Assembly (NCBI GenBank): GCA_038087875.1
Contig: CM075989.1
Location: 24,988,001 to 25,052,000, forward strand
DNA length: 64,000 nt
Origin: Malacoraja senta
Taxonomy: Eukaryota
Direction of reading: 5' to 3'
Below, in pieces: positions 1,414-34,189 of the stretch (the first letter of the stretch is position 1; each line of letters starts with the position of its first letter). Position numbers and translations under genes: made by a program. Below the pieces are notes generated by a model. That model made no database searches, had not been told where the DNA came from, and was given only the letters and a program-made list of their open reading frames with translations.

Positions 1414-1554
1414 CCTTCTTCTTCTCGCGTATGGCATGTACAGCCTAAAGTTGTAAGACAACTTGTTCTGTTTGATCTTCTGTTTGTGCACGCCAAGGTT
1501 GATTGTATCTGTCGAAACAGGGTGGACCATGTGAAGGTTGCAATCTCCCACATC
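1414..1554 (-). mobile_element. Family A HDV-ribozyme retroelement, decayed copy
   Basis: TSD tgcagttct (1405-1413 / 1555-1563). Alignable end to end with 32737-32874, with mismatches in P1, P2, L3 and J4/2. Confidence 0.88.
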
Positions 1555-24556: not shown

Positions 24557-25687
<1,131 letters not shown>

Positions 25688-32032: not shown

Positions 32033-32736
32033 GAGCATCTGCTGTGTCCCAATGGGCAAATAACATTAATCACCTTCCAGGATAATTGGCATCTATAGCA
32101 AAGGCCAGTTACAAAATATTAAGCACACAGACTATGTTGAGTAGTTCAGTATTCGTTAACAAACACCTAACTGACCTCTTTGGCCTTGTACTAGTTGATA
32201 TGGCTGATGGGTTCTTCCAGTCTCCCCTCACCCTCACCCTCCCCTATCTAATCAGCCTTCAAAACTCCCGTCCTTCAACCTGCCTACCTGGCCATTTACA
32301 ATCTGTTTCCTCTTGAATGATCTCAGGTGTTTTGTGGAACCCCAGATGGTGCTTCTCTTTATGGAGCTCCTCATTTGATAACATCTAATCAGATTCACCC
32401 TGGTTCAATCCTCAACCATTACATATCAGTTATATTTTAGGTGATTGTGATCATGGCAAAGTAACTTTCATTATTTATCTTGTTGGGTGACCATAAGGTC
32501 CTCCCTCTGGAATGCCTGTCCATGTGGATGACATCATCTGTGCCTGGTTCCAATACAAAGCTAGAGAGTCATCTGTAATGGCTTTCCTTCCATACCCAGC
32601 AGAGTTCCTCTAGATTTACCAAAGACCTACTCGGACCTCCCCTTTATCTCAACTGTACGTTGTCTATTCACAAACTCCAATTCTCCAGTAACCTCAGAAC
32701 TCTTCTAAAGGCTCTGACTGGTCCCTCTGCTCACCT

Positions 32737-32874
32737 CTTCTTCTTGCGTATGGCGTGCACAGCCTAAAGTTGTAGGACAACTTGTTCTATTTGATCTTAT
32801 TTGATTGTGCACGCCAGGTTGATTGCATTCGTCGAAACAGGGCGGACCACGTGAAGGTTGCAATCTTCCACCCC
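32737..32874 (-). mobile_element. 138-bp non-autonomous retroelement with 5' HDV-like ribozyme (family A, intact copy)
   Basis: TSD tctgctcacct (32726-32736 / 32875-32885). Minus strand starts GGGGTGG and ends gccatacgcAAGAAGAAG. Homologous to 1414-1554. Confidence 0.9.
32821..32874 (-). ncRNA. Minimal HDV-like (CPEB3-type) self-cleaving ribozyme, 54 nt
   Basis: GGGGUGG-AA-GAUUGCA-ACC-UUCACGU-GGU-CCGCCCU-GU-UUCGA-C-GAA-UGCAAUC: P1 7 bp with G1.U, P2 7 bp perfect, P3 3 bp, L3 UUCACGU, catalytic C in CGAA. Confidence 0.88.
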
Positions 32875-34189
32875 TCTGCTCACCTGACATGCATTCATCG
32901 ATGGGCAGAAAGTTCCTTCAATTAAATAATGGGAAGACTGGAACCATTGTTTTGCCGCACTATTTAATCCCCATCCAGTTATTACATCCTCCTTGCATCT
33001 GTCTGAAGTGAATTGTAGAGTTTATGGAGGGTGGAAGGTTAGAGTTATAAGGAGAGGCCTGAAAGGAAAGCTCTTTTTTCCTGGAGTACAGGAGGCTGTG
33101 TTGACCTTACAGACGTTGACCACATCATGAGGGGCATAGATAATGCCACTGTCTTTTCGTAGGGTGGAGGAGTTTAATACTTGTTCACAGCCGAAATGTA
33201 GAGGAATGGGGAAACATAGCAAGATCCCACAAACACCCTCATTGGTTTGATTTTACTCTTGATTCATCAACATCCTCCATGGCATATATGTTCTCAACAA
33301 TAACTGTAACTGATGTAGCGCAGAATTTATGCTGATGATCTTCAATAAAGCCTGCACCGAGATTGTTCAGTGTACGTCAGTGATCCCTTAAAGCCACGAA
33401 CCAACAAAACTGCAACTGTCCATTCTGCTTTAAGAAAATGAAGAGAAGAATGCATTTGGATAATACCTTTCAGAACGTTGGGGCCTTCCAAGGTAGTTTG
33501 TAGACAATGTAGTTTTATTAAAGGTGTTTGCTGTTGTAATTAAAGAAATACAGCTGCCAGTTTACATGCAGTGAGGTTCCTCAAACAGTGATATGATAAA
33601 GACCAACTGTTTTACTGATGTTGATTGCGGGCCATTAGATTTTACCAATTGAAGTGTCATTGGGAATGACTTGATGCCAATGGAAGTGAAGATGTATGGC
33701 ATGTAAAAAGATTGCTAGTCCAACTCAACTCAGAGCTGTTGAATTTCTTATTTGAATCTTCAACTCCCTCTCTCTCCCTTTCTTTCTGTTTCTCTGAAAC
33801 AAGCACCTTGAACGTTTCAGTCATTTACCTCAATAGCTCGATCTTTGGTTAAGCATGAAATCATGTTTCGTTACCATCCTTTTAAGCATCCCTAGACCCC
33901 TAACTTCATTAGAGGTCATCTATCTAAGCCAAGGCAGTGATGTGCTTTCCTGTGCTTCAGGCTCCGCCCAGCAAAAGAGAAGATCAAGTGGGCAAAATAT
34001 ATTTTATTGAAATGTAGCTTTACAATGGCACAACCTTATAGTTGGTCTGTTTAATATTATTATAATAACGGGGCAATCTCTGTAAACTAGGTCTACCTGA
34101 TCTTACAGCCTCTCTTCTTCATAAACTGCGATGAAGGTAAGGGATCATTAATAAAAAAGTCCAATAGTTTATGATCACCTAATAATAAT

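Follow-up and report, generated by a model that had tools for sequence, protein, structure and literature searches.

The window analysed here, the whole 64,000-nt stretch between positions 24,988,001 and 25,052,000 of the forward strand of Malacoraja senta contig CM075989.1 (assembly GCA_038087875.1), carries on its minus strand, at 32737..32874, a 138-nt retroelement whose 5' end has the form of a small HDV-like ribozyme. A second, older copy of the same family (88%; minus strand, 1418..1554), with a decayed core that gives no descriptor parse, is probably inactive. On the same strand, approximately 7 kb from the element, a GC-rich island holds a single-exon gene with a talin IBS2B-type domain (24557-25687), which we take to be TLNRD1-like. 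Repeats of the L1, CR1 and L2 types are also present in the window.

Read along the minus strand, the element is flanked by a target-site duplication, whose 5' copy lies at 32875..32885 (11 bp, or 14 bp when the initial GGG of the element is included) and whose 3' copy lies at 32723..32736 (11 bp plus a 3-bp GGG microhomology). Because the downstream copy runs on with GGG, the direct repeat is 14 bp long and the 5' boundary of this copy is ambiguous by 3 nt. The sequence-only reading had placed that boundary at G1 on the strength of an 11-bp duplication; G1 stands, but it is fixed by the ends of the family described below and not by the single copy at 32737..32874. An empty orthologous site is present in a relative: sequencing run X16, with flanks diverged by about 5%, skips 149 nt, which is compatible with 138+11 or 135+14, and run X17 contains the filled site with no differences.

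Overlapping the HDV-like fold, the segment at 32794..32867 (element nt 8-81) shows homology to the region where a parent LINE has its 5' end and 5' UTR; it is followed by the last codons and stop of the parent ORF (...LQL-stop) at 32764..32781 (nt 94-111). A 3' domain at 32751..32816 is built on an 11-nt inverted repeat, which forms an 11-bp stem linking the 5'- and 3'-derived halves and encloses an inner 7-bp hairpin; its folding energy has a z of -4.27, and none of 200 shuffles was equally stable. The element ends at 32737..32752 with the Vingi-type terminal motif CATACG-C, of the motif class seen at the ends of single-ORF LINEs, and an (AAG)n tail.

The head, 54 nt at 32821..32874 of the minus strand, is on paper a compact and complete HDV-like double pseudoknot that lacks P4, and its self-cleavage is predicted. 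All helices claimed by the sequence-only reading can be read from the letters: P1 pairs 32874-32868 with 32845-32839 and opens with a G1.U wobble (G1 at 32874), P2 pairs 32865-32859 with 32827-32821, P3 pairs 32858-32856 with 32848-32846 around L3 (32855-32849), and a GU linker (32838-32837) precedes a 5-nt insert, UUCGA, where P4 would stand, and then J4/2 (CGAA), whose catalytic-position C is 32831. The G1.U wobble, U20 and G25 of L3, and the catalytic C and the A of J4/2 are all present. P1, P2, P3 and P1.1 follow one another in the order of a nested double pseudoknot; P1.1 consists of a single G-C pair plus U.U, and G37-C44 could make a rival two-pair hairpin. The form is minimal, with an insert of 5 nt against 18-44 nt in eight other heads described below.

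A strict descriptor of this fold recognized the head as its sole match within the 64-kb window; neither 7.68 Mb of Markov background nor 309 kb taken from other loci yielded a match. An Rfam search, which had been proposed as a check, gave for a 111-nt stretch matches on the same strand and at the same place to the models for CPEB3 (RF00622; 22.5 bits, E 0.0003), HDV (RF00094; 19.7 bits) and HDV-F. prausnitzii (RF02682; 14.4 bits), all three below their gathering scores of 35, 50 and 44 bits, respectively; these models include P4, which the head does not have, and none of them was returned when 3.5 kb was scanned. Thermodynamic folding, a method that ignores pseudoknots, does not set the head apart (z +0.31).

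It is extremely unlikely that we are dealing with a Pol III SINE or with a chance likeness to a ribozyme, even if a B-box-like 9-mer with one mismatch (element nt 79) and Rfam scores under the gathering thresholds could be cited for it. ARAGORN detected no tRNA in the element, a scan for the consensus A-box and B-box motifs found no A box beside that lone 9-mer, and the descriptor had no background matches. No Pol III RNA-derived head of the tRNA, 7SL or 5S kind is seen, in agreement with the sequence-only reading. The homology of the head to a LINE 5' end, presented below, already contradicts such an origin.

The element belongs to a large family. At least 5,398 matches to its 45-nt core, with two mismatches or fewer, were found in the 1.94-Gb assembly, and a reversed-pattern control gave 0. 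All 30 loci fetched were short elements with an AAG tail, which after removal of three duplicates left 27 independent loci. Exact duplications of 11-14 bp, ending at G1 or one G further, flank 15 of these 27, the remainder having 6-10 bp (8/27) or none (4/27), and the base preceding G1, which is part of the target, is a T in 18 of the 27 (p 6e-5). The strict descriptor was passed by 22 of the 27 young copies, a set chosen for an exact core, and the median divergence outside the core was 3.2% for the 26 copies aligned from this set biased to young copies. Loose contig ends stack at the position of 32874 in four public runs (at least 298, 498, 199 and 51), with unrelated flanks (agreement 0.34-0.36), and the element is present in sequencing runs filed under at least eight organism codes. 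Evidence at the RNA level is weak, since run X2 is only presumed to be RNA and ends of transcripts do not show in contigs. Both the copy number and the 5' pile-up at G1 that the sequence-only reading had pointed to as informative are thus found, and copies routinely extending 5' of G1, which it had named as evidence against itself, do not appear in the family data. The family bears the marks of retrotransposition (duplication, tail and empty site) and contains no ORF and no Pol III head.

Common variants of the head keep the fold, such as CGAA to CUAA (16-46%) and U.G to U-A in P1 (8-29%), and the catalytic C (C44) is replaced by U in only 2-5% of copies. Since C-to-T changes are likewise low (3-11%) at the two other listed CpG sites, the low C44U rate argues only weakly for selection. 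Covariation, also proposed as a check, was scarce within the family, where RNAalifold on 26 copies found 1 of 33 pairs covarying (the copies are too alike, and pseudoknots fall outside the method), and was seen instead across families, in which pairs change on both sides (see below).

The search for a LINE partner led to several families. A genome search with the Rfam CPEB3 model, in which 39 of the 60 matches listed were above the cut-off, had as its best matches the 5' ends of a young LINE family, here called family A, which is 3.14 kb long and encodes a single ORF of about 1,000 aa with EN and RT and no RNase H. The Vingi clade is defined by a compact single ORF with APE endonuclease and RT and without RNase H (PMC13708176), a description that family A fits. 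Its homologues include proteins of Anolis, amphioxus, sea urchin and insects, and family A and the Anolis single-ORF proteins form one clade apart from the Nimb-, L1- and CR1-type RTs (97/98) in a tree of 18 rows with two long outgroup branches, where the name Vingi is given by architecture and the Anolis homologues in place of a labelled Vingi reference. Copies of family A (L105-L107; G000:C4:35489003, C8:937002) are 97-99% alike with frames of 1,008-1,014 aa, and the family is possibly still active. A teleost (Aldrovandia) protein falls in cluster P0255 together with a sequence 87% identical to family A, which hints at horizontal transfer among fishes. A search with the family-A endonuclease revealed about ten Vingi-type families by our own grouping; those named A-I have only the fold and the terminal motif in common with the element. 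Of 18 3' windows fetched for the single-ORF families, 12 contain the motif class (the other six missed the end or were interrupted); it is present in 3 of 3 family-A copies and is absent from the two Nimb-type ends and the one RTE-type end tested. None of 11 stretches from a Vingi-type search of viral contigs was confirmed, and eukaryotic LINE sequences found in prokaryotic bins or under bacterial names (L165-L168; P0214, P0088) are most likely host contamination.

Several candidates were set aside. An L1-type partner finds no similarity to the element at any of the 30 top PF00078 loci, all 30 being of that type; two Nimb-type families have AAG tails and unrelated 3' UTRs, an RTE-type family has a 3' UTR without similarity, and a CR1-type family gave no match. 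Family F, which matches 22 of 26 nt at the 5' end and 14 of 15 at the 3' end, was superseded as parent by family P, described next. A Nimb homologue search returned Nimb-type proteins only. One of the Nimb-type families (L061, L076; G000:C5:54188000-54196200) is a very young two-ORF LINE with an AAG tail and numerous identical frames of 1,277 aa that cover EN, RT and RNase H; a second (L073) shows 37-45% identity.

Among 16 stretches fetched, one (L155, representing family P) matches element nt 8-77 at 64 of 70 nt (91%, E 4e-25), the local alignment reaching nt 81, and continues after the matching part with an ATG and an endonuclease ORF. It lacks the 5' strand of P1 and has the same 5-nt insert instead of P4. 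Matches to the family-P 5' region are numerous: 20 of the 40 listed span 99-172 nt, with copies about 90-96% alike. Approximately 3.05 kb downstream of the 5' end, the end of the family-P ORF corresponds to element nt 100-110, which read LQL-stop in the element; in L162 the match extends to 14 of 16 nt, 11 of them contiguous, and the local alignment at the ORF end, which runs a few bases into an unrelated repeat, beat 2,000 of 2,000 shuffles. The same ORF end was found in a second copy, on contig C4434, and is itself repetitive (40 listed of 462 candidates). L162 is interrupted by another repeat right at the stop, and the windows of L163 and L164 miss the end; the 3' match to family P accordingly covers the ORF end, and element nt 111-138 (28 nt) lie beyond the parent sequence read. 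The protein as read comprises 37 codons, an endonuclease match with 34% identity to that of family A, and some 36 codons at the C-terminus; the C-terminal pairwise match is weak (E 0.014), and a profile of 60 Vingi-type proteins gave no score on these short pieces. For family P it is the length of about 3.1 kb, the endonuclease match and the ORF ends that fit the Vingi definition. In five family-P copies (e.g. G000:C1:3934703 and C1:3935544) the 5' region is inverted relative to the ORF end, resembling twin-priming 5' inversions.

With a 5' part that shares homology with the start of an autonomous LINE, the element appears to be bipartite in the manner of SIDEs. As judged from the alignment to L155, its origin by internal deletion is shown for the 5' side, as is the loss of P4 in the autonomous parent, ahead of the deletion. 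In young copies the 11-bp stem joins the two halves, and the parent 5' UTR has a shorter match there; selection for end-to-end pairing by this stem is a guess.

These data lead us to propose, with a probability of roughly 0.85, that the element is a bipartite, internally deleted derivative of the Vingi-type LINE family P that replicates through a cycle based on its ribozyme head. The deletion would have joined about 85 nt of the LINE 5' end to about its last 45 nt (ORF end, 3' UTR and tail). It is very unlikely that the element is instead a hybrid, with a head from family P and a 3' end from another LINE that mobilises it, as in R2/R1 hybrid SIDEs: the family-P sequence read ends at the ORF stop, before the 3' UTR, the ends of family F agree with the element at 14 of the 15 terminal nt, and Nimb- and RTE-type families likewise end in AAG tails, but in two copies the 11-nt match coincides exactly with the stop codon of family P, and the Nimb- and RTE-type 3' UTRs have neither similarity nor the terminal motif. 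Because no clearly intact family-P copy was found among those seen and the copies are 91-96% alike, the mobilising partner may today be a family other than P.

In the cycle that we envisage for the family-P derivative, Pol II would transcribe a copy, the start lying either in host DNA (read-through) or at a promoter within the head; the P4-less fold would then cut the RNA 5' of G1, a cleavage predicted from the fold and the family ends, so that host sequence upstream is shed and the RNA begins with a structured 5'-OH end. Acting in trans, a Vingi endonuclease/RT would recognise the AAG tail together with the terminal motif and insert the RNA by target-primed reverse transcription, which would account for the observed 11-14-bp duplications. 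At a length of 138 nt most copies would be completed to G1, in line with the observed pile-up, and each new copy would regain a whole ribozyme. By analogy with Pr77, it is possible that the head doubles as an internal promoter, and the term promoter-less used by the sequence-only reading may not apply.

A variant of the same origin, in which the head no longer cleaves and acts as an internal Pol II promoter or as a protein-binding or stabilising fold, the pile-up at G1 marking a transcription start, appears unlikely. Pr77 of L1Tc/NARTc combines the functions of ribozyme and internal promoter (PMC3383444), P1.1 is weak in the element head, and the variant rates within the family do not prove selection on the catalytic C; nevertheless, every core feature is intact in young copies (22/27 by the strict descriptor, in the set chosen for an exact core), P4-less ribozymes of the theta type are reported to cleave in vitro (10.1101/2023.06.13.544163), and a P1.1 with a U.U pair is described as compatible with fast cleavage (PMC13635239). 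We retain the derivative with a head predicted to cleave itself. The claim of the sequence-only reading that the element is non-autonomous, depends on a LINE RT and starts at its predicted cleavage site is supported by the copies, their ends, the empty site and the parent, whereas its description as a SINE-like element with a ribozyme head has to be replaced: the head was inherited from a Vingi-type LINE with the same P4-less fold, and since the parent supplies both this head and the ORF end, the element is most probably an internal-deletion derivative of the SIDE/NARTc/RIME kind and no new class of SINE.

Its architecture already has clear precedents. NARTc, RIME and SIDER elements (PMC4035085 and PMC3383444) are short non-coding derivatives of L1Tc/ingi that keep an HDV-like fold at +1, the Pr77 ribozyme cutting 5' of +1, and the Ingi clade is sister to Vingi; a single stretch of 77 nt serves L1Tc/NARTc both as ribozyme and as internal promoter (PMC3383444). 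Their head is 77 nt long with P4 and is found in protists, whereas here it is 54 nt without P4, in a vertebrate, in thousands of dispersed copies, and with cleavage predicted. Drosophila R2 SIDEs (PMC3414825) similarly consist of a ribozyme and a 3' end and diverge from their parent, but they are specific for 28S rDNA, use the R2 machinery and are longer (R2Dwi_SIDE, 529 bp) than the dispersed 138-bp element with its APE-type partner. Heads of R2 SIDEs (PMC3414825) and of NARTc/SIDER (PMC4035085) are reported to cleave in vitro. The hedgehog Vingi-1_EE derivatives (Kojima et al. 2011, as cited in PMC5786205) resemble the element in that internal deletion has fused the two ends of a LINE with one ORF and no RNase H, and in having no Pol III head; the Vingi-type heads here differ in parsing as HDV-like. 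The minimal HDV-like drz-Mtgn/theta ribozymes, as described in 10.1101/2023.06.13.544163, likewise have no P4 and have the catalytic C first in J4/2, but they come from gut metagenomes and phages, beside tRNAs, whereas the present head belongs to a eukaryotic mobile element; the search reported there detected none in the genomes examined from human, mouse and protists. In the literature searched, there was no report of HDV-like heads on Vingi LINEs, of a P4-less HDV-like form in a eukaryote, or of this family, which may have been catalogued before.

If the predicted cleavage occurs, ribozyme-processed retrotransposition extends to the Vingi clade. This clade is in development for RNA-only gene writing (PMC13708176), and with more than 5,000 insertions of a natural 138-nt template it becomes apparent that a Vingi RT may require very little sequence at either end. 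The P4-less HDV fold, for which roles outside phages were left open in 10.1101/2023.06.13.544163, is placed in a eukaryotic mobile element, and its thousands of copies constitute a natural variant series. The element also bears on the question, raised by Kojima, why only some clades make bipartite derivatives.

The heads of Vingi-type families were compared by parsing with a relaxed descriptor, as MAFFT could not align them. Thirteen heads were tried, of which two gave no parse and the parent copy, missing the 5' strand of P1, was omitted. The ten heads used represent different families; their helices pair in 153 of 160 cells, and 14 of 16 pairs change on both sides, figures to be read with the limit that the descriptor itself selects pairings; the C of J4/2 is kept in 10/10, as is L3. 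None of 1,036 background pieces reached the lowest score used. Metagenome contigs of unrelated origin contain 19 Vingi-type loci for which upstream DNA is present; in 7 of them a head (four distinct ones) lies 127-233 nt before the ORF match, compared with 0/19 on the opposite strand. A second, unrelated short family of about 170-200 nt (L102, L103; G000:C13:8596080, C2:95332788) has a different HDV-like head, in which 5 nt likewise replace P4, and terminates in the Vingi manner; no parent of this family was found. The 5' part of the ribozyme is tandemly repeated at the 5' junctions of some LINEs (L095, L117, L120), which suggests repeated template switching at the cleaved end.

Several of these heads resemble the mammalian CPEB3 ribozyme closely. 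Those of some Vingi-type LINEs (L175, 581-653, with L176 and L177; L085-L094 and L100) and of an old dispersed repeat (L096, L097, L099) score 48-64 bits on the CPEB3 model (RF00622), with up to 64.2 bits for family A and 55.6 bits for the autonomous LINE on L175, a sister of family A in the RT tree (95/97). Over the first 37 positions of the Rfam CPEB3 consensus the L175 head agrees at 35, and over the last 12 at 11. These scores do not come from the fold alone, since the well-formed heads L119 and L126 give no CPEB3 match, and the CPEB3-like heads match helix letters that vary freely among other families. L3, the GU linker and CGAA of the CPEB3 ribozyme are identical to those of the element head, and its P1.1 also consists of one G-C pair plus U.U (10.1101/2022.09.22.508989), but CPEB3 is a single intronic locus with P4, and the element head scores only 22.5 bits, against 55-64 for the related LINE heads.

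According to PMC5753468, humans keep an ancient Vingi trace, X12_LINE. The CPEB3 ribozyme is stated in PMC8233481 not to be found beyond mammals, and structure-based searches found related folds in non-mammalian genomes (PMC8256844). We would give even odds to a wider reading, suggested by these sequence likenesses, in which Vingi LINEs would be widespread animal carriers of HDV-like ribozymes, the present element their smallest replicating form, and the CPEB3 ribozyme the domesticated 5' end of a Vingi element; the CPEB3 likeness may also have arisen by convergence on a constrained core. If the domestication is true, the Vingi heads can serve as outgroup to the CPEB3 ribozyme and make its origin open to test. 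The old dispersed repeat (L096, L097, L099), with 4 matches in the genome search, matches even the P4 stem of CPEB3.
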